Assembly: GCA_041496705.1 (NCBI GenBank)
Contig: JBGQFD010000001.1
Location: forward strand, 39,127-103,126
DNA: 64,000 nucleotides
Source: Gammaproteobacteria bacterium
Lineage (GTDB): Bacteria > Pseudomonadota > Gammaproteobacteria > Burkholderiales > SG8-39
Direction of reading: 5' to 3'
In this document: positions 5,423-17,367 of the stretch, in pieces
Numbering within the stretch: the stretch's first letter is position 1
Layout of the letters: each line of letters opens with the position of its first letter
The notes under the pieces: model-generated
Seen by the model: the letters and a program-made list of their open reading frames with translations, nothing else
Told to the model about the DNA's origin: nothing
Database searches by the model: none
Translations under genes and position numbers: made by a program

Positions 5423-5645
5423 CGGGGAAGTTTTTCAAGGTGTTTTCTTCGAGCACCTTGACTTGCTGTTGCGCGCGGGCGAGGACTCCCTGGCAGTGCT
5501 GGGCCAGCTCCAGGCCGCGCTTGTGGGCGGCGAGGGACTGCTCGAGCGTGAGCTTCCCCGACTCCATGCTGGCAACGATCTTCTCCAGTTCGGCAAGAGC
5601 GGCCTCAAAGCTCTCGGGCTGTTCGGGCTTGGCAGGTTTGGACAT
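5406..5645 (-). CDS. xseB: exodeoxyribonuclease VII small subunit
   Basis: 79 aa starting at the internal Met of ORF 5406..5693 (MSKPAKPEQPESFEAALAELEKIV..LEQSL). Sits in the xseB-ispA-dxs order. Confidence 0.85.
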   Translation of the reverse strand: MSKPAKPEQPESFEAALAELEKIVASMESGKLTLEQSLAAHKRGLELAQHCQGVLARAQQQVKVLEENTLKNFPGDDQQ

Positions 5646-5834
5646 GGGTCGCGACGCTGCCCACTCGGGACACGCCGTTCTGGAAAAGGGCAAAAATAGC
5701 CTATGGGGGAGGCAGGGTCAAATTGATCTCTGAAAAAAGCTCTTCCTGAAAGGAAAAATCGCTGGAAGGCGAGGGGAAAAGGGGCTAGAATCGCGCGCAT
5801 TTTAATTGATTGCCATCGGGAGTTCTCACCCAAT

Positions 5835-6938
5835 ATGTCCGACCTGCCCAGTTCACGGAAGCTGAATCCAAATACCTCACAGCTTCCCGTGTCGTGGTAT
5901 CTGGAGCCACGCGTCTTCGAACTGGAGCAAGAGCTGCTGTTCGCCACCGGCCCCGGCTACGTCGGCCACGAGCTGATGGTGCCCAACCCGGGCGACTACC
6001 ACGTGCTTGACTGGATGAATCGCGGCAAGGTGCTGGTGCGCAACACCAACGGCATCGAACTCCTCTCGAACGTCTGCCGGCACCGGCAGTCGACGTTGCT
6101 GCAGGGGCGCGGTAACGCGACCAATATCGTATGCCCGCTGCATCGCTGGACCTACGACATGCAGGGCGAGCTCCTCGGCGCCCCGCATTTCCCCGACAAT
6201 CCCTGCCTGAATCTGGGTAGCAGCAAGCTGCAGAACTGGCGCGGTCTGCTGTTCTCCGGTAAGCGCGACGTCGGCCGCGACCTCGCCGGGCTTTCGCTCG
6301 CCGACCAGTTCGATTTCTCCGGCTACCTGCTGGACCATGTCGAAACGATGGAACTCGATCAGAACTGGAAGACCTTCATCGAGGTGTATCTCGAGGACTA
6401 CCACGTCGTGCCGTTCCATCCCGGGCTCGGAAATTTTGTCACCTGCGACGATCTCAAGTGGGAACTGAACGACGCCTGGTCGGCGCAGACGGTGGGCGTC
6501 AAGGACGGCTTCGCCAAGCCCGGCACCCCCGCGTACGCCAAGTGGCACCAGGCGCTGATGCGATTCCTCGATGGCCGTGTGCCCAGGCAGGGCGCCATCT
6601 GGTTCCTCTACTACCCCAACGTGATGATCGAGTGGTACCCGCATGTGCTCGTCGTCAGCACCCTGTTGCCGCGCTCGCCGGCGCTCACCACCAACGTCGT
6701 CGAGTTCTACTACCCCGAGGAGATCGTGCACTTCGAGCGGGAATTCATCGAGGCCGAGCGCACCGCCTACATGGAAACCGCGATCGAAGACGACGAGATC
6801 GCCAAGCTCATGGATCGCGGTCGCCGCGCGCTCTACGAGCGTGGGGACAACGAAGTCGGGCCGTACCAGTCGCCCATGGAAGACGGCATGATGCATTTCC
6901 ACGAGTACATCCGCCGGGGCCTCGCCGGAAACGCGTAG
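5835..6938 (+). CDS. Rieske [2Fe-2S] non-heme iron oxygenase, alpha-subunit-like
   Basis: 367 aa with Rieske motif CRHRQ...CPLHRW and mononuclear-iron motif EDYHVVPFH. No reductase or ferredoxin partner is adjacent. Confidence 0.8.
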   Translation: MSDLPSSRKLNPNTSQLPVSWYLEPRVFELEQELLFATGPGYVGHELMVPNPGDYHVLDWMNRGKVLVRNTNGIELLSNVCRHRQSTLLQGRGNATNIVCPLHRWTYDMQGELLGAPHFPDNPCLNLGSSKLQNWRGLLFSGKRDVGRDLAGLSLADQFDFSGYLLDHVETMELDQNWKTFIEVYLEDYHVVPFHPGLGNFVTCDDLKWELNDAWSAQTVGVKDGFAKPGTPAYAKWHQALMRFLDGRVPRQGAIWFLYYPNVMIEWYPHVLVVSTLLPRSPALTTNVVEFYYPEEIVHFEREFIEAERTAYMETAIEDDEIAKLMDRGRRALYERGDNEVGPYQSPMEDGMMHFHEYIRRGLAGNA

Positions 6939-8264: not shown

Positions 8265-9059
8265 ATGAAGCAGTACCTGGATCTCATGCGCCACGTGCTG
8301 GAGCACGGGGCGAAAAAGACCGATCGCACCGGGACCGGTACGTTGTCCACGTTCGGCTGGCAGATGCGCTTCGACCTGCGGCAGGGTTTTCCTCTGCTCA
8401 CCACCAAGAAAATCCACCTCAAGTCGATCGTCTACGAGCTGCTTTGGTTCCTGCGGGGCGACACCAACGTGCGCTGGCTGCAGGAGCGCGGCGTAAGCAT
8501 CTGGGACGAGTGGGCAGACGAGCGCGGCGAACTCGGCCCCGTGTACGGCTCGCAGTGGCGCAGCTGGCCGTCAGCCGGCGGCGGCTCGATCGACCAGATC
8601 GCGCAGGTCTTGAAATCGATCCGCGAGCGCCCCGACTCGCGCCGCCATGTCGTCACCGCCTGGAATCCGGCCGAGATCGACCGCATGAAGCTGCCGCCGT
8701 GCCACGCGCTCTTCCAGTTCTACGTCGCCGAGGGCGAGCTCTCCTGCCAGCTCTATCAGCGCAGCGCCGATATCTTCCTCGGCGTGCCGTTCAACATCGC
8801 CTCGTACGCGCTGCTTACCCTGATGACCGCGCGGGTCACGGGCTTGAAAGCCGGCGAATTCGTCCACGTCCTGGGCGACGCGCATCTGTACCTCAACCAT
8901 CTCGACCAGGCGAAGGAGCAGCTGTCGCGCACACCCAGGCCGCTGCCGCGCATGCGGCTCGACCCGGCTGCGACCGACATCTTCGGCTTTCGCTACGAGG
9001 ATTTCACCCTGGAAGGCTACGATCCGCACCCGGCGATCAAGGCACCGATCGCAGTCTAG
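8265..9059 (+). CDS. thyA: thymidylate synthase
   Basis: 264 aa with [37 protein letters not shown] and the catalytic [11 protein letters not shown]. Confidence 0.97.
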
Positions 9060-10045
9060 CCGGCTCGAGCCGCGTCGGCGGCGGGGCGGCGCAGTAAGGC
9101 CGCAGGCGCAACCGGCATGCCTGCCTGAGGAATGCCGGCCGGCCCGGACGCACCATCGATCGGAACGCCGAGCAAGACCCGGTGCGTTTCCTTTCCGGCG
9201 GCATCGCGGTAGACCAGCTCATTCGTGTCGAACTCGTATTCCGGATGTCGCTGGTCGTTCCACTCGTTCAGGAAGTACGTGTAGAAGGGCACGAACAGTC
9301 CGTTGCGTGGCTCGCGGTGCTGGAGCGCGAAGACGTACTCGGGCTGTTGGCTGACCTGGAATCCGCTGTGGCAGTGCTGCACCCAGACGTGGTCGCCGAG
9401 CACGACCACCTTCCAGAAAGGCTCCTCCTCGTAGAACTTGAGTTTCACCTGCTTTCCCAGCCTGCGCAGCCCGGAGAGGTACGCGATGCTCGCCTCGATC
9501 TCGGTTTGCAGGGTGAGCACGGTGATGTCCGGCGGCAGGGAGTCAGCACGCCGGCGCATGTGCATCCCCACCGGGCTGAGCAGCATCACCCTTACTTCGT
9601 AGGCTTTCTCCAACGTTCCACGCAGCAGACTTTCGTCCGAGACGAAGGTGTCGTAGCCGGTCAGCGTCAGGACGAACGCGTCACGTGCTGCCGGAAGCTG
9701 CTTCACCAGGACGCGCTCACGCCAGCGCGTCAGCCATCCGCGTCCGCCGTTCCGTGCGTAGACGAGGGATGCAAGCCGCGCGATCCGCACTTTCTGCCGG
9801 CCGTCCCAGGCGATCTTGGCGAGATTGAAGAGCAGCGCGAGTATTGAGGCAAGGCCGATCTCGCTGGCGAGCAGAAAACTGGCGTTGCTTTCGACCTTCG
9901 GCCACCACTGATTCAGGATGTAGCTTGCGCCTTGCGGCAGCGAGAAGGCGACGGCAACCGCAAGCAGGGTCATGAGGCCGTGCGAGAGGATCTGTTTCAG
10001 GCTGACCCACAGGCTGTGCGCCTGTATTCCCTGGTGCATCTGCAT
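9056..10045 (-). CDS. membrane protein of unknown function (N-terminal TM helices plus soluble domain)
   Basis: I prefer the ATG at 10045 (MQMHQG...), which forms a TGATG stop/start overlap with the upstream peptidase gene. I recognise no family. Its stop overlaps the thyA stop in convergent orientation. Confidence 0.6.
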
Positions 10046-11034
10046 CAACGCTGCCACGCCCGTTCGGTCCTGCCCGCACGCGCGGCAACCGCGTGCAGGG
10101 TGCGAGTCGCCGTATCCTCGAGCGGCCCGCCGAGACTCACGGCTATTTGTGCTTCTGCCAGTGCCTCCTCATAGCGATCGAGGTCGGCGAGCGTCTGCGC
10201 AAGGTTATTGTGCGCGGCGGCCGACCGGGGGTGAGTGAGGGTCGCCCGGCGGAAAGCCCGCTCTGCAGTCTCGAAGTCGCCCTGGACGTAAGCGGTGTTT
10301 CCCAGACCGAGGAGCGCCACGAGGTTTTCCGGCGCGCGTCTCAAGACGCTGTCGTAAGCGGTCCGCGCGGGCTCCGGCTGACCGCCTTTTTCGAGCTTCA
10401 TGACGGCGCCCAGATAATCCGGAACGGCTAGGCTGGCTGGCAAGCGCTGCGGAGGCAGCGCGAGCATCGCCCAGCGACCGCCGCCCTTCCACGTGCGTTC
10501 GAAGGAATCGAACGTCATCTCGACCCTGCGCTTGCTCCCCGAGCGCAGCACGATGCGCCCGGCGTCCAAGTCATAGCCGACCGCCACTGCGTAGTGCCAG
10601 GCGGGTTTCCAGTCGAAAGCGAGGTTCTGCAGGACGACAACCGGGGTGCCGGCCGCGATCTCGGCGAGCAAGTCCGGGAGGTTCGGTTTCAACTCGACTG
10701 CAACGAAGCCGTTGCGGCGCGCTGCGGCGAGCATTTCCACCTGGAGGCTGCCGTGTCTGCCTGGAACATAGACCTGCGGCCGCAACGTCTCCGGCTCGAC
10801 CGGATTGCCGCCGGCACCGAGCACCATCGCCAAGGCGGCCGGGCCGCACTGGTACTCGTCCTGCGCGTAGAACGGAACGCCGTCGAGTTCGACGCGTTGC
10901 GGAATTTGCTCGAGCCCGTCTTGCGCGACCGCCTGGAGCCGCGGTGCGGCGCAGCCTGCAAGCGATATCAGCACGAAGCCCAGCGCCAGAAAGCGGCGGG
11001 CGCTACGCCGGCACGGCGAGGAGCGATCGCTCAC
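10045..11034 (-). CDS. PA2778-family C39-like cysteine peptidase lipoprotein with C-terminal TPR repeats
   Basis: 329 aa with lipobox LISLAGC, papain/C39-like catalytic motifs YQCGPAALAMVL and WHYAVAVGYD, and a TPR-like C-terminus. GTGA start/stop overlap with the upstream gene. Confidence 0.8.
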   Translation of the reverse strand: MSDRSSPCRRSARRFLALGFVLISLAGCAAPRLQAVAQDGLEQIPQRVELDGVPFYAQDEYQCGPAALAMVLGAGGNPVEPETLRPQVYVPGRHGSLQVEMLAAARRNGFVAVELKPNLPDLLAEIAAGTPVVVLQNLAFDWKPAWHYAVAVGYDLDAGRIVLRSGSKRRVEMTFDSFERTWKGGGRWAMLALPPQRLPASLAVPDYLGAVMKLEKGGQPEPARTAYDSVLRRAPENLVALLGLGNTAYVQGDFETAERAFRRATLTHPRSAAAHNNLAQTLADLDRYEEALAEAQIAVSLGGPLEDTATRTLHAVAARAGRTERAWQR

Positions 11035-11438
11035 TTGGCCGTGCGGGTGAAGCTAAACACTTTGGTGAACCCCAGTATGTCGGTCACCAGGAGAATGACG
11101 AACGCCAGGAACCCGACCAAGAGGGCGGCCGAGATCGCATCGCCGCCTGCGGGAAGCGCGTCCAGGCGCGCGGCAACGCGCTCGATTTCGTCATCGCTCA
11201 GGGCGTCCACCCGGGCCTTCGCGTCCGAGGCGCTGACGCCATGGCGCTCCAGCCCGGCACGGACGTCGTCGCGCGCGAGAAGGGTCGCAATTCGTTCGCG
11301 CGCGCTGGCGCGCAGCGGCTGTACGGTGTCCGCCTCATCGGTCGCGACCAGTTCCGCGTGAGCCACCGGAACCGGCAGGCCGAAGCAGAACATGCTGACG
11401 ACGAGCACGCGCGCGACGCTCCTGTAGACGCTCTTCAT
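11031..11438 (-). CDS. PA2779-family protein (signal peptide, helical periplasmic region, C-terminal TM anchor)
   Basis: 135 aa with signal peptide ending VAHA, the SDDEIERVAARLDALPAGGD segment and the hydrophobic tail AISAALLVGFLAFVILLVTDILGF. GGAGAG Shine-Dalgarno upstream. Usual partner of PA2778-family peptidases. Confidence 0.7.
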   Translation of the reverse strand: MKSVYRSVARVLVVSMFCFGLPVPVAHAELVATDEADTVQPLRASARERIATLLARDDVRAGLERHGVSASDAKARVDALSDDEIERVAARLDALPAGGDAISAALLVGFLAFVILLVTDILGFTKVFSFTRTAK

Positions 11439-11480
11439 GTTGTTCTCTCCTGGGTTGAATCGTTCGTGGGTAGCGGAATC

Positions 11481-11963
11481 TTACCCCCGCACGAGCTTTC
11501 CCTCGACCACGCGCACCTTGTCGCCGACGGCGAACGCGGGAGGGCTTGAGAGCGACACGGTGCGAAACGACCCGTCGTCCATGCGCACCGTAACGCGGTA
11601 GGCGTGGCGCTTCTTCACCCCCGGCTCGCCCGTGGCAAAGGCACCCCCAGCGAAACCCAGGATCGTCGTGGAGCGACCCGCCTCCGCATCACCGCGCCGT
11701 CCGCCGGCTTGCAGTCCTGCGGGAGCCCCGGCATCGGCGCCGTTTTCTGCAGACTCGTCTCGAACTTCGAGAATCCGGATCGATACAACCCCGCCACAAA
11801 TCGCGCAACTACCGGCCCGAGCCGTCACGGCCGCCGGCGCTACCGCCCCCGGCCGAACCCCGGGGTGTCCGCTGAGCATCTCGATCGCCAAGCCGAGCAG
11901 GGCTGCGCCGGCCGCGATTGCTGCCAGCGGGCCGATCCAGGCCCAGGACGTTCTAGCGCTCAT
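11481..11963 (-). CDS. small membrane-anchored protein, related to glycine-zipper / 17-kDa-antigen-like proteins
   Basis: 160 aa starting at the internal Met of ORF 11481..12047. GGGAGAAG Shine-Dalgarno 6 nt upstream. N-terminal TM helix, CAICGGVVSI motif, and C-terminal YRVTVRMDDGSFRTV...GDKVRVVEGKLV. Confidence 0.55.
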   Translation of the reverse strand: MSARTSWAWIGPLAAIAAGAALLGLAIEMLSGHPGVRPGAVAPAAVTARAGSCAICGGVVSIRILEVRDESAENGADAGAPAGLQAGGRRGDAEAGRSTTILGFAGGAFATGEPGVKKRHAYRVTVRMDDGSFRTVSLSSPPAFAVGDKVRVVEGKLVRG

Positions 11964-12043
11964 GAATAGCTTCTCCCTCGGGACGCGTACGCGCCTGGAC
12001 GAGTTTCCGGCGCGACAGAATCGTGCAATTCCGGCAGGACACG

Positions 12044-12058
12044 GCAAGCACCGTGCCA
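12044..12058 (-). promoter_or_regulatory. sigma-54 (-24/-12) promoter
   Basis: The minus strand reads TGGCACGGTGCTTGC, matching the TGGCACG-N4-TTGC consensus at every fixed position. It lies about 80 nt upstream of the 11963 start codon and directly downstream of a sigma-54 activator gene. Confidence 0.65.
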
Positions 12059-12123
12059 GAGAGTACTTGAACAGTCGCTTCAGATAGTTATGCGGGAAAT
12101 CGAGACGCGCACCGAGCCCGAAG

Positions 12124-12141
12124 TGTCACCTGAGGACGACG
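12124..12141. promoter_or_regulatory. second, imperfect TGTC-N10-GACG site
   Basis: TGTCACCTGAGGACGACG, matching 7 of 8 half-site positions, about 70-85 bp upstream of the -24 element. Confidence 0.3.
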
Positions 12142-12190
12142 CCCGCTTGAGCGCAACCGAGAATCAAGCTGAATCGAAAAGGATTTGCCC

Positions 12191-12208
12191 TGTCGCCCCG
12201 GGGCGACA
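12191..12208. promoter_or_regulatory. candidate enhancer-binding (GlrR/QseF-type) site TGTC-N10-GACA
   Basis: Perfect palindrome TGTCGCCCCGGGGCGACA about 135-150 bp upstream of the sigma-54 promoter. It has the same half-site and spacing pattern reported for E. coli GlrR. Confidence 0.45.
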
Positions 12209-12222
12209 CGGGGCACGCGCGT

Positions 12223-13563
12223 TCAGCTCTTTTCGAGCTTGAACATCTTGGATTCGAGCTGGTGGCGCTCCAGGAGCTTGTAGAACTCGGTGCGGTTGCG
12301 CTGCGCAAGCTTCGCCGCCTGGGTTACGTTGCCCCCGGTCATACGCAGAATGCGAACCAGATAGTCGCGCTCGAATGCGCCGCGGGCCTGTTCGAGCGAA
12401 GCGAGCGGCATCGGCTGCTCCTTGAGCGCTTGCTGCGCCAGGGAGGCCGGTACTACGCCGGAGGGGCACAGTGCCACCATCTGTTCCACCGCGTTGACCA
12501 GCTGGCGCACGTTTCCGGGCCACGCCGCTGCGAGGAGCAGCTCAAGCGCCTCTGGCGCAAAAGCGCTCACATCCTTCTTGTAGCGCTCGGCGGTGCTCTT
12601 GAGGTAGTGCATGGCGATGGGAGCGATGTCCTCGCGCCGCTCGGCGAGAGGCGGCAACGCCAGGGAAACGACGTTCAGGCGGTAATACAAGTCTTCCCGG
12701 AAGCGCCCTGCTTTCATCTGGGCGTCGAGGTCCCGGTGCGTGGCGGAGATGACGCGCACGTCCACCGGCATGCCCTGCGTGGCTCCGACCGGCCGCACCT
12801 CGTGGTCCTGCAGCACGCGAAGCAGCTTCGCTTGGAGAGACAACGGCATGTCGCCGATCTCGTCCAGGAAAAGCGTGCCGCCGTCGGCCGCAGGCACCAA
12901 CCCCTTGTGATCGTACATCGCACCGGTAAAAGACCCCTTTCGATGGCCGAACAACTCCGATTCGAGCAGGTTTTCGGGAATCGCGGCGCAGTTCACGGCC
13001 ACGAAGGGCCCGTCGGCGCGGCGGCTGGCACGGTGGATAGCCCGAGCGAGGAGTTCCTTTCCGGTGCCGCTGGCACCCTGGATGAATACGCTCGCATCCG
13101 ATTGAGCGACCAGCCGCGCCTGGTGGAGCACGTTCTCCATCTTGGGGCTCTGCGTCACGAACTCGCGCCGCCAGTCCTCCTCGATTGTCCCCGGCCCGGA
13201 TCCAGAGAGCCGCAGCGCCTGCTCGACCTGCTCGAGCAACTGTTTTCCGTCGAACGGCTTGGGCTGAAAACCGAATACACCGCGCCGGGTGGCGGAAACG
13301 GCGTCGGGGATCGTGCCATGCGCGGTCAGGATGATGACGGGGAGCATCGGCGCCTGCTTGCGCACCTCCTCGAAAAGAGACATGCCGTCCATCCCGCCCA
13401 TTTTGAGGTCGGTGATGATCAGGTCGGGCCGGGATGCTGCGAGCGCGGCGAGCGCCCTTTCGCCGCTGTCCACAGCCTGAACGCGGTAGCCCGCGGCGCT
13501 CAAACGCAATGACAACAGCTTGAGGATGTCAGCGTCGTCGTCGACGAGAAGAATCGTGCTCAT
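12223..13563 (-). CDS. sigma-54-dependent response regulator (NtrC family, GlrR/QseF-like)
   Basis: 446 aa with a receiver domain (LLVDDDADILK...ITDLKMGGMDG), AAA+ motifs GASGTGKE, ESELFGHRKGSFTGA and GTLFLDEIG, and a C-terminal Fis-type HTH (GNVTQAAKLAQRNRTEFYKLL). Confidence 0.9.
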   Translation of the reverse strand: MSTILLVDDDADILKLLSLRLSAAGYRVQAVDSGERALAALAASRPDLIITDLKMGGMDGMSLFEEVRKQAPMLPVIILTAHGTIPDAVSATRRGVFGFQPKPFDGKQLLEQVEQALRLSGSGPGTIEEDWRREFVTQSPKMENVLHQARLVAQSDASVFIQGASGTGKELLARAIHRASRRADGPFVAVNCAAIPENLLESELFGHRKGSFTGAMYDHKGLVPAADGGTLFLDEIGDMPLSLQAKLLRVLQDHEVRPVGATQGMPVDVRVISATHRDLDAQMKAGRFREDLYYRLNVVSLALPPLAERREDIAPIAMHYLKSTAERYKKDVSAFAPEALELLLAAAWPGNVRQLVNAVEQMVALCPSGVVPASLAQQALKEQPMPLASLEQARGAFERDYLVRILRMTGGNVTQAAKLAQRNRTEFYKLLERHQLESKMFKLEKS

Positions 13564-14066
13564 TTTGGTCGTGCCTTTTCGCGCTCGATGATCCCGCGTT
13601 CGATGGCTTTCAAAGCGTCGAGTTGTTCCCGCAACTGCGCCGAGCGACGCTGCTCCCGGGTGCGCTCGCTGATCTGCGCGTACAGCAGCCCTGCAAACTG
13701 CTGCAGCGACCCCTTCGGCAGCTCGAGGGCGGCGGACTCGGCGAGCGGCTCGAGCAAGCCGGCCGCGCGAGTGTCGTCGTTGAAAGCGGTTCCGGGCAGG
13801 GCGAGCAGCAGTGCCAGCCTGACCCGCCCATAGACGCCCCGGCCCTTGGAAAACATCTGGGTCGAAACGTTCAACTCACGCCGCTGCTCGTCAGCATGCA
13901 TGGCCGCGACTCGCTGAACGTAACCGACGAGTTCCGCGACCACGCGGGCTTCTTCGGCCTCGCGTGTCTGCACTACGGCGGGCGAGTTCCCGCCCGCGAA
14001 CGGAAAAGCCGCGCAGCCGGCCAGTACCGAAGCCCACGTTGCCATTATCGCCAGACTAAGACGCAC
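13560..14066 (-). CDS. helical lipoprotein, positional equivalent of QseG/YfhG
   Basis: A GTG start at 14066 gives the signal peptide (M)RLSLAIMATWASVLAGC with a lipobox. The ATG at 14045 is the alternative start. It overlaps the kinase stop and the regulator start, so all three are tightly coupled. Confidence 0.55.
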   Translation of the reverse strand: MRLSLAIMATWASVLAGCAAFPFAGGNSPAVVQTREAEEARVVAELVGYVQRVAAMHADEQRRELNVSTQMFSKGRGVYGRVRLALLLALPGTAFNDDTRAAGLLEPLAESAALELPKGSLQQFAGLLYAQISERTREQRRSAQLREQLDALKAIERGIIEREKARPK

Positions 14067-15531
14067 GGCCCCGGGACGCAGCGGCGACGAGCGGAATCGA
14101 GACGCGGAAATGCGCACCGCCGGCCTGGTTGTCCACGACCTCGACCCTCCCCGCATGAGCAACAACGAACTCCCTGACGATGGCGAGCCCCAGGCCGCTG
14201 CCCTGCACCCGACCGTGATGCTGGTACTCGCCCTGATAGAACCAGTCGAAAATCCTCTCCCCATCCTCGGGCGGTATACCCGGGCCCGCGTCCCCGACGT
14301 CCAAAATCACGTTATCTCCCTCGCGTCGCAGCGCCAAGGAAATAATACCCCCATCGGGGGAGTATTTGATCGCGTTTGAAACTAGGTTGGCCACCACCGC
14401 GCGCAGCTTGTCCGCGTCCGCCTCGAGAGCGACAGGCTGCAGTTGCAGTTCCGCGCGAATGCCCCTGGCCCGGGCCGCAAGCCGATGATCCTCGATGACC
14501 TGGTCCACGATGCGATCGAGTCGCAGCATCGACATGTCCAGTCGCCCGACACTCTCCTGGGCGCGGTGGTAACTGAGCAGGTCTTCGATCAGAGCCTGCA
14601 GCTGCACGCTCTTCTGCTGCAAGATGGCGACGATCTCCCGTTGCGGAGCGGCGAGCGGTCCGGCCGTTCCTTCCATCAAGAGTTCCGAGCCTTCCCGCAA
14701 CGCCGTGAGCGGCGTCTTCAGCTCATGCGAGACGTGGCGCAGGAAGAATCGCTTTTGCTGTTCCAGCTCGATCAGCCGCTGGCGCAGCCACTCTAGGCGC
14801 CCCCCGAGATACTTCAGGTCGGCCGGCCCGCCGACGCGAATGCCGGCATCGAACTCACCCGCACCCAGCCGCCGGATCGCCTGGTCGAGTTGCCGGATCG
14901 GCCTGGCGATGAGCAGCGTAACCCCGACGGCCAGGAATATTCCCAGCGGAATCGTGGCCGCCAGCTGTAACCAGAGCGTTTTCTGCGCGCGCTCGGCCGT
15001 GCGACGCATTGAGTCGATCTCCCGATCGATCAGGGCGTTGCTCGTGTTCAGCACTTCACGAGCCAGCTCCGACAGCGAGACATAGCCTTCTATGAGGGCC
15101 GTCTTCTCCGCGCGAACCGACGGACGGCGCAGCAAGGTTTCGTACAATCCCTGTTCCTTGTCGATCGTGGCGTTGAGGCCGCGCAATTGCAGTTCGTCCA
15201 GCGGCTGCAGGGACAGTTCGCTCGTGTTGGATTTGAAGTTCCCTCTCAACCTGGCGTAGTCGTTGAGGAGCTCCGCGTCATCGAGGATCAGGTACTGGCG
15301 CGCCACCCGCTCGAGCGCCGTCGTCTGCTCGACCAGCAAGCGGCTGCCGCGCGAAGCCTGGGCTGCCTGCGAGACTGCGGTCTGACTTTGCCCCGCAAGC
15401 TCCTCGACGTACACTGCCGCGTTGTAGAACGCCACGATCAACGGCGCGGCCACCAGTGCGAACGCGAGCAGCAGCAGGCTGAGGAACGATCTGGGGTAGT
15501 AGCGACGGGGAAAGTCGAGCCCGATTTTCAT
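14056..15531 (-). CDS. sensor histidine kinase (two TM helices, periplasmic domain, HAMP, HisKA, HATPase)
   Basis: 491 aa with H-box RHVSHELKTPLTAL, N-box NLVSNAIKYSP and G-boxes DVGDAGPGI and GSGLGLAIV. Confidence 0.9.
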   Translation of the reverse strand: MKIGLDFPRRYYPRSFLSLLLLAFALVAAPLIVAFYNAAVYVEELAGQSQTAVSQAAQASRGSRLLVEQTTALERVARQYLILDDAELLNDYARLRGNFKSNTSELSLQPLDELQLRGLNATIDKEQGLYETLLRRPSVRAEKTALIEGYVSLSELAREVLNTSNALIDREIDSMRRTAERAQKTLWLQLAATIPLGIFLAVGVTLLIARPIRQLDQAIRRLGAGEFDAGIRVGGPADLKYLGGRLEWLRQRLIELEQQKRFFLRHVSHELKTPLTALREGSELLMEGTAGPLAAPQREIVAILQQKSVQLQALIEDLLSYHRAQESVGRLDMSMLRLDRIVDQVIEDHRLAARARGIRAELQLQPVALEADADKLRAVVANLVSNAIKYSPDGGIISLALRREGDNVILDVGDAGPGIPPEDGERIFDWFYQGEYQHHGRVQGSGLGLAIVREFVVAHAGRVEVVDNQAGGAHFRVSIPLVAAASRGRAS

Positions 15532-15623
15532 CGACGCTATAATGCCGGAGTTTTCGACCGGACGCGCCGCGCCGAAACCGCGCAGAGCCCGGCAACAGAC
15601 ATTTCAGCCGGTTACCAATAACC

Positions 15624-16121
15624 ATGAGCCTCGCCCGATCCGTCTCTATCATCGCCGCGGTGGGCGGCAACAGGGTCATAGGTCGCGGCGGCCGCTTGCC
15701 GTGGCACCTTCCGAACGATCTGAAGCATTTCAAGCAGGTGACCCTTGGCCACACCGTGATCATGGGACGCAAGACCTTCGAGGCCATCGGCAAACCTCTG
15801 GCGAGGCGCAGCAACGTCGTCGTGACGCGATCGCGCGAGTGGAATCACCTGGGCTGCAGAACCGCTGCATCACTCGAGGCGGCTCTGGAAACTCTAGGGC
15901 CGGCGGAGGCCCCTTTCGTAATCGGCGGCGCGGAAATCTACGCACTCGCCCTGCCCATCGCGGGACGCCTCTGCCTGACGGAAATCGAGCGCGATTTCGA
16001 CGGCGATACCTTCTTTCCCGAGTTCAACCGGGCCCAGTGGCACGAGGTATCACGCGAGTCGCAGGTGCTCGAAGGCGGCGACGGCTTCCGTTACGCCTTC
16101 GTCGAGTACCGGCGCGGCTAG
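15624..16121 (+). CDS. folA: dihydrofolate reductase
   Basis: 165 aa with IAAVGGNRVIGRGGRLPW, LKHFKQVTLGHTVIMGRKTFEAIG and VIGGAEIY. Confidence 0.95.
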   Translation: MSLARSVSIIAAVGGNRVIGRGGRLPWHLPNDLKHFKQVTLGHTVIMGRKTFEAIGKPLARRSNVVVTRSREWNHLGCRTAASLEAALETLGPAEAPFVIGGAEIYALALPIAGRLCLTEIERDFDGDTFFPEFNRAQWHEVSRESQVLEGGDGFRYAFVEYRRG

Positions 16122-16149
16122 AAGCCCGCGCCGTTCCTGCTGCAATCCG

Positions 16150-17367
16150 CTAGATCACCCGGACTTCCGGTAGCGGAAACCCGTTGAAGGTGCTCGCGTA
16201 GGCCGTCGTATACGCGCCGGCATTCTTGAGGTAGATGTAGTCGCCTTCCTGGAGGTCCGAAGGCAACGGCTCGTCGCGCATCACGACATCTATCGAATCG
16301 CAGGTCGGCCCGGCCACGTTCCACGGAATGTCAGGCCCGGAGCGGTCGGTGCGAATCTTGTACTTGAGCCCTTCGGCCGTTTCTATAATTCCGCCGAACA
16401 GACCCGCGTCGAGATGCATCCAGCGCTTGCCGGCGCGTAGCGCCGTACCCATGATGCGGCAGACGAAGTAGCCGGCATCGGAGACCAGGAACCGCCCAGG
16501 TTCGGCAATCACCCGTACCGAGGCCGGAAACGTTTCCAGCGAGCGGTTAACGACCTCGCCGATGACCTCGATGGCCGGAATCGGTTTTACGTGCCTGACC
16601 GGAAATCCCCCCCCGATGTTGAGGAGGCGCGGGTTGAGCCCGGCCTTGGCCATCTGATCGAAAACCGCGCGCGCCTTCTCGATGCCTACGCGCCAATTCT
16701 CGGGGTTGCGACATTGCGAACCCACGTGAAAGGCGATACCGGCCAGGTCGGCCTTGATTTTCGCGGAGGTGGCGATGATTTCGCGAATCTCGGAGGCGTG
16801 GGCGCCGAACTTGCCGGCAAGCGGCCAGTCGCTGCCGATGTTGGGCGTATCGATGCGCAGGTAAAGTTTGGCGTCGGCCTTGACCGAATGGATTTTCCTG
16901 ACCTCATCCACGCTGTCGACGACGAACCATTCCACGCCCTTGGCGGCCGCGTGCGCGACAAAATCGCGCGGCTTGATCGGATTCGAATAGTAGATTTCGC
17001 TCGCCGGTACGCCGAGGGACGTGAGCAAATCGACTTCGGCGGTCGAGGCAATCTCGAATCCGGCGCCCTCTTCGATCAGTACCCTGACGACGCGCGGGTC
17101 CGGATTGGCTTTGACCGCGTAGTGCGGATGCACGCGCGGCATGGCCGCAACGAAGCGCCGCGATTTTTCGCGAACGATGCTCGAATCTATCAGTAGGAAG
17201 GGCTTGCCGTAGCCGTCTTTGGCGGCTGCCCGGACCTTCTCGAAGTCCAGGCTCGACTCAGGGTGAGAGTCGAAAAGATGGGATTGTTCAAATGCCTGCT
17301 GTCGGATGGATCTGATGGTTTTTCTTGCTACGCCGGCGCGCATCTGCATCGGAAGGGTCTCCAGCAC
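16150..17367 (-). CDS. fold-III PLP-dependent decarboxylase (ornithine/lysine/DAP decarboxylase family)
   Basis: 405 aa with HYAVKANPDP (PLP lysine), FHVGSQ, IGGGFP, EPGRFLV and CDSIDV. The listed start appears to be GTG. ATG alternatives lie at 17349 and 17343. Confidence 0.85.
   Translation of the reverse strand: MLETLPMQMRAGVARKTIRSIRQQAFEQSHLFDSHPESSLDFEKVRAAAKDGYGKPFLLIDSSIVREKSRRFVAAMPRVHPHYAVKANPDPRVVRVLIEEGAGFEIASTAEVDLLTSLGVPASEIYYSNPIKPRDFVAHAAAKGVEWFVVDSVDEVRKIHSVKADAKLYLRIDTPNIGSDWPLAGKFGAHASEIREIIATSAKIKADLAGIAFHVGSQCRNPENWRVGIEKARAVFDQMAKAGLNPRLLNIGGGFPVRHVKPIPAIEVIGEVVNRSLETFPASVRVIAEPGRFLVSDAGYFVCRIMGTALRAGKRWMHLDAGLFGGIIETAEGLKYKIRTDRSGPDIPWNVAGPTCDSIDVVMRDEPLPSDLQEGDYIYLKNAGAYTTAYASTFNGFPLPEVRVI

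Follow-up and report, generated by a model that had tools for sequence, protein, structure and literature searches.

C39 peptidases are textbook cytoplasmic enzymes that cut leader peptides and are attached to bacteriocin exporters. The locus described here raises the question of what such an enzyme does when it is encoded as a lipoprotein beside a small membrane-anchored protein, and whether this small protein is its substrate. Both genes lie in a 64-kb window (the whole stretch of DNA that was analyzed, 64,000 nucleotides of contig JBGQFD010000001.1 from a gammaproteobacterium of the Burkholderiales lineage SG8-39), in which a gene for a peptidase of the PA2778 family follows a gene for a protein of the PA2779 family. 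The initial annotation suggested that the peptidase releases the periplasmic domain of this partner by cutting at a Gly-Gly pair located directly before its only transmembrane helix. As judged from the comparison of sequences, this interpretation is partly supported. The functional unit is a two-gene module of partner and peptidase, and we propose tentatively, at slightly less than an even chance, that the peptidase cuts the partner at a P-A-G-G junction and thereby frees a helical domain from a membrane stub.

A literature search returned no paper assigning a function to PA2778, PA2779 or DUF6627, which agrees with the earlier statement that the pairing is catalogued but has no described function. 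The locus is a member of catalogued families, and the mechanism proposed for it would be a new form of C39 processing.

The peptidase and its partner

The features of the pair are given below; here and throughout, coordinates of the locus refer to the minus strand of the window unless stated otherwise.

11031..11438, minus strand: gene 2, PA2779/DUF6627 protein of 135 amino acids (NF033919, PF20332), proposed substrate or partner
11355..11438, minus strand: residues 1-28 of gene 2, predicted Sec signal peptide, cut between AHA and ELVATD (conserved A-x-A)
11142..11153, minus strand: P-A-G-G motif of gene 2, residues 96-99, candidate cleavage site from the alignment
11034..11141, minus strand: residues 100-135 of gene 2, hydrophobic helix and tail at the C-terminus, LLxTDILGFTKVFxFTR
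10045..11034, minus strand: gene 3, PA2778-family lipoprotein peptidase of 329 amino acids with C39 and TPR parts and a GTG start (NF033920)
nt 10953-10951, minus strand: lipobox LAGC with Cys28, from sequence reading
nt 10848-10846, minus strand: QCGPAAL with C63, from sequence reading
nt 10596-10594, minus strand: WHYAV with H147, from sequence reading
nt 10078-10425, minus strand: C-terminal TPR array of gene 3, approximately residues 204-319

Gene 2 scores well above the cut-offs of both family models, with 103.6 bits for PA2779_fam (NF033919, cut-off 40) and 75.2 bits for DUF6627 (PF20332, cut-off 27), and these scores together with the reading of the sequence bear out its initial description as a PA2779-family protein with a signal peptide and one transmembrane helix. 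The signal peptide and the C-terminal helix were read from the sequence and are supported by their conservation in 150 representatives, one per 50%-identity cluster, which are 36-58% identical to the window protein and cover only the closest part of the family. In this set A26 is kept in 117 and A28 in 144 members, T33 in 137, and T119, D120, G123 and T125 of the helix and tail in 143-145 each. The sequence LDALPAGG is present as described, with G98-G99 at nt 11147-11142, and an amphipathic stretch of conserved residues (L80, V85, L88, L92 and L95) stands directly before the P-A-G-G motif. The PA2779 family as a whole comprises 1913 representatives (50%-identity clusters) at E<=1e-3, distributed over Beta- and Gammaproteobacteria and Desulfobacterota, with the PA2778/PA2779 pair of Pseudomonas aeruginosa included.

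Gene 3 was recognized by NF033920 (C39_PA2778_fam) with 316.6 bits, more than twice the equivalog cut-off of 150, and by Pfam models for Peptidase_C39 (35.4 bits), Peptidase_C39_2 (43.6 bits) and many TPR families, while its best non-TPR match in NCBIfam is the NHLP-type bacteriocin peptidase/ABC transporter. The QCGPAAL and WHYAV motifs, the lipobox and the TPR array that had been ascribed to it are all present. Among 64 homologues from genome loci, Q58, C63 and H147 are kept in every one, and C28, Q58, C63, H147, N137 and D155 are kept in 63-64 of the 64; the lipid-attachment Cys is found in 64/64 and the lipobox in 60/64. The retention of the catalytic residues throughout the family indicates that its members are active enzymes, unlike the inactive C39-like domains of some exporters.

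An AlphaFold2 model of gene 3, built from 62 sequences (mean predicted local distance difference test score, pLDDT, of 84), shows residues 24-39 as a disordered tether, together with a peptidase domain of the alpha/beta type and a TPR array of seven or eight helices. When TPR proteins are set aside, a Foldseek comparison of this model with the PDB returned the C39-like structure 3erv, PCAT1 with its substrate (8vp5) and the peptidase domain of ComA (3k8u), the last with a template modelling score of 0.77 on the target; a PDB search with the gene 3 sequence returned TPR proteins only. On the combined evidence of residues and model, the gene 3 peptidase is predicted to be catalytically competent. 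The gene 2 and gene 3 proteins both face the periplasm. Most peptidase homologues carry A, T and P at positions +2 to +4 after the lipidated Cys, and sorting to the outer membrane is therefore predicted by the rule established for Escherichia coli.

On plasmid pAZKH of Azoarcus sp. KH32C (L082:5365-6294), the annotated PA2778-family coding sequence (5548-6294) starts late and is devoid of the catalytic Cys, and the full open reading frame (ORF) from 5365 restores the lipobox LAAC and the QCGPAAL motif.

Conservation of the P-A-G-G motif

The initial annotation had named conservation of the Gly-Gly pair as a check on its proposal, and the proposal passes it once the motif is defined less strictly. 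Among the 150 representatives, P96 is kept in 145, A97 in 144 and G98 in 145, so that these three positions are 96-97% conserved, but the second glycine, G99, is kept in only 112 (75%), with A (18), Q (11), E (4) and S (4) as the alternatives. Conservation equal to that of P-A-G is reached only at R76, G67 and a few residues of the helix. The linker that follows the motif varies in composition and in length, with 9-15 residues up to F113.

The first set of genome loci was drawn with the anchor pattern TDILGFTK, derived from a seven-sequence alignment, and is biased toward this anchor type. Because of this bias, a second set was drawn through the peptidase alone, from metagenome contigs with the patterns WHYAV[VA][VI]G and [YF]QCGPAALA. 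The 70 upstream partners obtained in this manner read PAGG (43), PAAG (13), PAGA (10), PAGE (2), PAAA (1) and PSGG (1), and thus P-A-[G/A]-[G/A] is present in 67 of them. The motif survives before three unrelated types of anchor: apart from the TDILGFTK type of the main subfamily, the partners of Azoarcus sp. KH32C and L152 have a plain, tailless helix after MPAGGNL or APAGGNL, and a Desulfobacterota-like group carries LAAG[S/R/G] ahead of a third kind of helix.

The aligned sequences thus point to [P/A]-A-G-x as the conserved element, with [P/A]-A-G as its core, and not strictly to Gly-Gly. Since conservation is lowest at the second glycine, where Q, E, R and K are tolerated, the bond that is cut could lie after A-G as easily as after G-G. 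GG, GA and AG all occur naturally in the partner family. C39 enzymes cleave at GG and sometimes at GA (PMC5557850), and the natural GA and AG variants agree with this tolerance and lend support to the partner as a substrate.

Gene neighborhood of the pair

Two complementary samples were used to ask which genes travel together, namely 80 genome loci ascertained through the partner, of which 75 have room for a neighbor, and 79 metagenome loci with room that were ascertained through the peptidase. The peptidase directly follows the partner in 63 of the 75. Seen from the enzyme, 71 of the 79 loci have the partner directly upstream, five directly downstream and one probably downstream on a truncated contig, and two are without it; an adjacent partner is present in 76/78. 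PGAP annotation likewise shows the pair in Eleftheria terrae and Azoarcus. Clustering of all neighbors in these loci returned no further conserved gene beyond partner and peptidase.

Because only these two genes are conserved together, the pair is the functional unit, and the four-gene operon of the window is a local elaboration of it. The initial annotation correctly described four co-oriented genes but gave too much weight to the outer two (genes 1 and 4), which, like the adjacent two-component system, are found in the closest clade only. The near-obligate adjacency is also asymmetric, in that the enzyme is nearly always accompanied by a partner and spare partners are found elsewhere, as is seen in families of enzymes and their substrates.

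A number of individual loci depart from the common arrangement. Two tandem copies of the partner, both with PAGG, are located at a contig end (L030:2687-3554), and in the Sideroxydans metagenome-assembled genome (MAG) WOFB26 the partner is encoded at two separate places, L037 and L064, with a peptidase adjoining it at just one of them. Four orphan partners (L028, L066, L077 and L068) are placed between ilvD, encoding dihydroxy-acid dehydratase, and a gene for a thioredoxin-domain (YyaL-like) protein of 664-668 amino acids, with no peptidase nearby. In Desulfobacterales-like loci (L134, L142, L143 and L158) the order is peptidase, partner and then a coiled-coil OmpA-family lipoprotein, and in two Desulfobacterales clusters (P0320 and P0372, with 8 and 11 members) the helix of the partner runs directly into a fused OmpA domain.

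In locus L039 (7477-8376), a lipoprotein peptidase of the M48 family (27.7 bits) takes the slot of the C39 enzyme after the unit of genes 1 and 2. We count this replacement of one peptidase by another as a point that may favor the partner as a substrate.

Proposed mechanism and alternative explanations

The computation itself yields the order of the genes, the promoter with its activator sites, the assignment to families, the catalytic competence as judged by conservation and fold, the conservation of the motif and the near-obligate adjacency of the pair, and the mechanism outlined here is what we infer from them as regards the partner as substrate, the position of the scissile bond, the active fragment and the physiological role. 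The partner would be exported by the Sec pathway, lose its signal peptide at A-x-A, stay attached to the membrane through the hydrophobic helix at its C-terminus and expose a helical domain of some 70 residues to the periplasm. The peptidase, as a lipoprotein, would carry its active C39 domain of papain fold, fused to the TPR array, on a flexible tether, and could bind the partner by way of this array and of the amphipathic helix 80-95. The predicted cut in P-A-G-G, at the junction of helix and membrane, after either G99 or G98, would part a soluble periplasmic domain from a membrane-bound stub some 36 residues long. This reading is favored because the motif is conserved across anchor types, because its substitutions are confined to small residues, because the amphipathic residues L80 to L95 precede it, and because the enzyme has an intact catalytic site, a fold common to GG- and GA-cutting peptidases and an asymmetric pairing with its partner.

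Several observations weigh against such a cut. Strict Gly-Gly is found in approximately 60-75% of members, its second position taking A, S, Q, E, R or K. The sequence before the motif is not a canonical leader, as position -4 is Pro (97%) and the "leader" would extend over 71 residues after the Sec signal, and hidden Markov models (HMMs) of leader peptides gave no match to gene 2 even at E<=10. Conservation of the helix and tail of the main subfamily (LLxTDILGFTKVFPFTR, in which the Asp is near-invariant) exceeds what a disposable anchor would need. The predicted place of the peptidase is the outer membrane, whereas a mere 0-5 residues separate the motif from a presumed inner-membrane helix. 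Peptidases without a partner exist (L138 and L154), nine orphan partner genes, around which a stretch of at least 1.1 kb is free of a peptidase, still have PAGG, and the partners of L004 and L057 precede gene 4 instead of a peptidase. Finally, the OmpA-domain fusions make a simple helix with its N-terminus outside and its C-terminus inside hard to uphold.

Alternatively, the partner may not be a substrate at all but a membrane tether, an adaptor or a pseudo-substrate inhibitor that holds or silences the peptidase, whose real targets would be other envelope proteins and could include the glycine-rich product of gene 1 or peptidoglycan-associated proteins. The very strong conservation of the transmembrane helix and tail in the main subfamily speaks for this explanation, as do the orphan partners, the locus L138 (with a regulator, a gene-1-like gene and a peptidase and no partner), and the Desulfobacterota-type loci and fusions in which the partner is tied to peptidoglycan-binding domains of the OmpA family. 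TPR lipoproteins, for example NlpI, are described as protease adaptors (PMC5686067), and a depletion of PA2779 insertions in a TraDIS screen (transposon-directed insertion-site sequencing) of P. aeruginosa (bioRxiv 10.1101/733030) would fit the loss of a protective inhibitor. Yet a pure tether needs no near-invariant P-A-G across three anchor types, a pseudo-substrate would still bind the active site and so overlap with the cleavage mechanism, and other substrates are without direct evidence; we therefore consider this explanation unlikely, at about one chance in four. It is less probable still, and in our opinion rather doubtful, that P-A-G-G is only a structural helix-breaker or hinge, that the two genes are adjacent owing to some other shared role, and that the partner is not proteolyzed. 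Pro, Ala and Gly are indeed generic helix terminators at membrane interfaces, the motif is kept in orphan partners, and it is not a canonical C39 site. However, generic hinges drift, and here three positions are 96-97% fixed while the linker next to them varies in length and composition, substitutions at positions 97-98 are limited to small residues, and the adjacent enzyme belongs to a family specialized for small-residue sites.

The resemblance of the partner to a sorting signal deserves separate consideration. In the main subfamily, motif, hydrophobic helix and basic K/R tail at the C-terminus form a tripartite layout, and in the alignments LPAGG resembles LPXTG, so that a sortase-like thioacyl transfer of the periplasmic domain to an acceptor can be imagined, all the more as the enzyme is a membrane-tethered Cys/His peptidase and as one lineage ties the partner to peptidoglycan-binding OmpA domains. 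This we regard as very improbable. To our knowledge, C39 enzymes act as hydrolases only, the adjacent enzyme is a C39 peptidase and not a cognate sortase, exosortase or rhombosortase, the helix and tail of the main subfamily are far more conserved than known, discarded sorting signals, Azoarcus-type members have no basic tail, and no acceptor is known. A further reading, to which we give a small chance only, is that the pair represents a new envelope processing or sorting device in which the tethered C39 enzyme would recognize a C-terminal [L]-P-A-G-G. Such a device may transfer the periplasmic domain of the partner to an envelope acceptor, as a Gram-negative "C39 sortase", or it may work as a trans-envelope ruler in which the outer-membrane protease reaches the inner-membrane-proximal site only if the periplasm narrows or is damaged; envelope geometry may then be turned into a proteolytic signal, with the released stub or soluble domain feeding back on stress signaling. 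Hardly any credence is given to a toxin-immunity pair belonging to a type VI secretion system (T6SS), with the peptidase as the delivered toxin and the small protein as its immunity factor. PA2778 is listed in passing as a possible toxin in the P. aeruginosa TraDIS preprint, where PA2779 insertions are depleted in the H1-T6SS-active compared with the inactive library (log fold change -5.69, q 0.0024; bioRxiv 10.1101/733030), and the small protein, like many immunity proteins, is oriented toward the periplasm. On the other hand, the conserved lipoprotein signal of the peptidase (Cys 64/64, lipobox 60/64) means that the producer exports it by Sec, in contrast to T6SS cargo, the enzyme is usually preceded by the small gene, T6SS genes are missing from the surroundings of the pair in the window and from the conserved neighbors in 160 loci, and the authors left the pair without follow-up. 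In view of the lipoprotein signal and of the absence of T6SS genes nearby, the toxin-immunity reading was rejected.

In P. aeruginosa strain PAK, PA2779 corresponds to PAKAF_02302 (399 nt), and the TraDIS value given above, taken from the supplementary table of the preprint, is the only experimental datum on the PA2779 family that we are aware of. The gene identifiers in the preprint are not uniform, as the main text equates PAKAF_02301 with PA2778 and the table equates PAKAF_02301 with PA2780 and PAKAF_02302 with PA2779 (bioRxiv 10.1101/733030).

Relation to known systems

The pair is most like double-glycine leader processing but fails in two of its hallmarks, the link to a cytoplasmic ABC exporter and the canonical short leader, which stands at the N-terminus, ends in GG, GA or GS and carries hydrophobic residues at -4, -7, -12 and -15. 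In common with the leader peptidases ComA, PCAT1 and those of the LahT type, gene 3 has a papain-type fold with an oxyanion Gln, a Cys and a His, and the candidate site in the partner consists of two small residues after an amphipathic helix, with GG, GA and AG as variants. In contrast to them, gene 3 is neither cytoplasmic nor joined to an ABC transporter, being a lipoprotein predicted to be exported by Sec and Lol and equipped with a TPR array; no transporter domain was found in gene 3, and no ABC exporter is a conserved neighbor in the clustered loci. The candidate substrate also differs, as it has a Sec signal, a "leader" of 71 residues and a membrane helix in the place of the "cargo", carries Pro instead of a hydrophobic residue at -4 and matches no leader-peptide model.

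The nearest precedent for a C39 enzyme that is free in the periplasm is FapD of the Pseudomonas Fap amyloid system. Like gene 3, it is a free-standing, Sec-exported and active periplasmic C39 peptidase whose substrate is without a canonical leader (PMC5557850); this substrate is non-canonical and still unclear (PMC5557850). FapD differs in having a plain signal peptide, no lipobox, no TPR and no DUF6627 partner, and in being encoded in the fapA-F operon.

From another peptidase family, LapG and its substrate LapA may serve as a functional analogue. LapG is a periplasmic Cys/His protease that cuts the anchored LapA at a short site of small residues, reported as (T/A/P)-A-A-(G/V), and the PAAG variant of the partner family (13/70) reads the same as this site. 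LapG is transglutaminase-like and not a C39 enzyme, is controlled by c-di-GMP through LapD and acts on a giant adhesin secreted by a type I secretion system (T1SS). A further likeness exists to NlpI and Prc, in that a TPR lipoprotein organizes envelope proteolysis (PMC5686067); here, TPR array and protease form one polypeptide and the peptidase is a cysteine, not a serine, enzyme.

If the proposed cleavage is true, a free, lipid-anchored and TPR-fused C39 peptidase with a dedicated Sec-exported, anchored partner would represent a different use of the C39 fold and a processing step inside the Gram-negative envelope. With 1913 partner clusters at 50% identity, the pair is common.

Promoter and upstream regulators

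In the lineage of the window, the module stands in an operon with its own promoter and next to a putative two-component system, with the following features.

12044..12058, minus strand: sigma-54 -24/-12 promoter TGGCACGGTGCTTGC, exact TGGCAC-N5-TTGC
12124..12141, minus strand: proximal upstream activator site CGTCGTCCTCAGGTGACA (given on the operon strand), one mismatch to TGTC-N10-GACA
12191..12208, minus strand: distal upstream activator site TGTCGCCCCGGGGCGACA (TGTC-N10-GACA), the sole exact match in the window
12223..13563, minus strand: sigma-54-dependent response regulator, GlrR/QseF-like (Pfam Response_reg, Sigma54_activat, HTH_8)
13560..14066, minus strand: small lipoprotein (LAGC) between kinase and regulator, in the QseG position, from ORF reading
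14056..15531, minus strand: sensor histidine kinase (Pfam HisKA, HATPase_c)

The sigma-54 promoter that the initial annotation placed ahead of the four co-oriented genes was read at 12058-12044, and it is the only exact match to TGGCAC-N5-TTGC in 64 kb, with 0.14 expected by chance. Both TGTC-N10-GACA sites sit within the 167-bp intergenic region upstream of the operon. The sigma-54 element and the site at about -148 from the -24 element hold their position in 14 related loci, with varying spacers, and the site at -83 is conserved in position in seven of the 14. TGTC-N10-GACA is the published consensus of GlrR (PMC3045617), and GlrR is also the best NCBIfam match of the regulator, at 608 bits and thus below the equivalog cut-off of 763, followed by NtrC with 421 bits. 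This GlrR-like regulator is likely the activator of the operon. An Rfam scan of 8800-16300 found nothing, and prediction of intrinsic terminators across 8800-12400 gave none.

The arrangement resembles QseE/QseG/QseF (GlrK/YfhG/GlrR), with the same order of kinase, small lipoprotein and sigma-54 regulator, a sigma-54 target promoter with upstream TGTC-N10-GACA sites and a common theme of envelope homeostasis, QseEF being an envelope-homeostasis system (PMC6075780). It differs from it in that the regulator stays under the GlrR cut-off, that the lipoprotein, although conserved in the close clade, has no match in Pfam or NCBIfam scans, that the target is a protein operon and not glmY or rpoE, and that the link between regulator and operon is confined to the closest clade.

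In the window lineage the module would thus have come under a sigma-54 promoter that the neighboring GlrK/QseG/GlrR-like system drives, in an operon shared with an orphan membrane protein and with a glycine-zipper protein resembling SlyB/YcfJ. Given GlrR-like sigma-54 control alongside a SlyB/YcfJ-like protein, we propose that the processing may be part of an envelope-stress response. The sigma-54/GlrR-like control and the TraDIS phenotype of PA2779 both point to envelope stress.

Locus L039 contains a second sigma-54 promoter with two GlrR-type sites, at L039:8567, ahead of an ORF of 739 amino acids.

Additional genes of the operon

The pair is preceded and followed by one gene each.

11481..11963, minus strand: gene 1, membrane-anchored protein of 160 amino acids with a degenerate glycine zipper (SlyB/YcfJ-like), from family matches of orthologues
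9056..10045, minus strand: gene 4, 329 amino acids from the ATG, two predicted N-terminal transmembrane helices and an uncharacterized soluble domain

Gene 1 is preceded by a ribosome-binding site, GAGGGAGAA. Further down, direct reading confirmed the two overlaps reported earlier, in which the GTG start of gene 3 overlaps the stop of gene 2 as GTGA and the ATG of gene 4 overlaps the stop of gene 3 as TGATG.

The label "glycine-zipper-like" given to gene 1 is fair because its orthologues match Glycine zipper 2TM (PF05433; 35.8 bits for the orthologue in L061) and the YcfJ-like PRK11280, and one source calls the gene SlyB. The window copy itself is degenerate and has no match in Pfam (PF05433 included, E<=0.1) or NCBIfam. 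In the alignment, the degenerate zipper has a conserved CxxCG motif on one side and a conserved C-terminal domain on the other. Gene 1 proteins have a variable region that itself abounds in A/P-G-G motifs, and in the metagenomic locus L138 (1649-3355) a sigma-54 regulator, a gene-1-like gene and a peptidase stand together with no DUF6627 partner; given these two observations, it can be speculated that the gene 1 product could be a second client of the peptidase.

Gene 4 encodes, as initially described, a 329-residue membrane protein. No family match was obtained for it in the window scans, a profile search against PDB sequences returned nothing, and a Pfam scan of 34 members gave only sub-threshold scores, none of them usable (LcrR 12, DUF5671 8, Cap15_TM 7 and DUF5919 5). 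An AlphaFold2 model from 34 homologues, which are 66-90% identical, reached a pLDDT of 43.6. The 721 homologues found all come from Burkholderiales MAGs, none with a Pfam domain.

The placement of gene 4 is variable even among close relatives. It is absent from the closest-clade loci L001, L003, L008 and L014, comes straight after gene 2, with no gene 3, in L004 and L057, and is located upstream of the kinase in L039. In the window, gene 4 converges with thyA (8265-9059, plus strand) in a 3' overlap of 4 nt at 9056-9059, and in relatives without gene 4 the end of the peptidase gene lies 13-80 nt from thyA.

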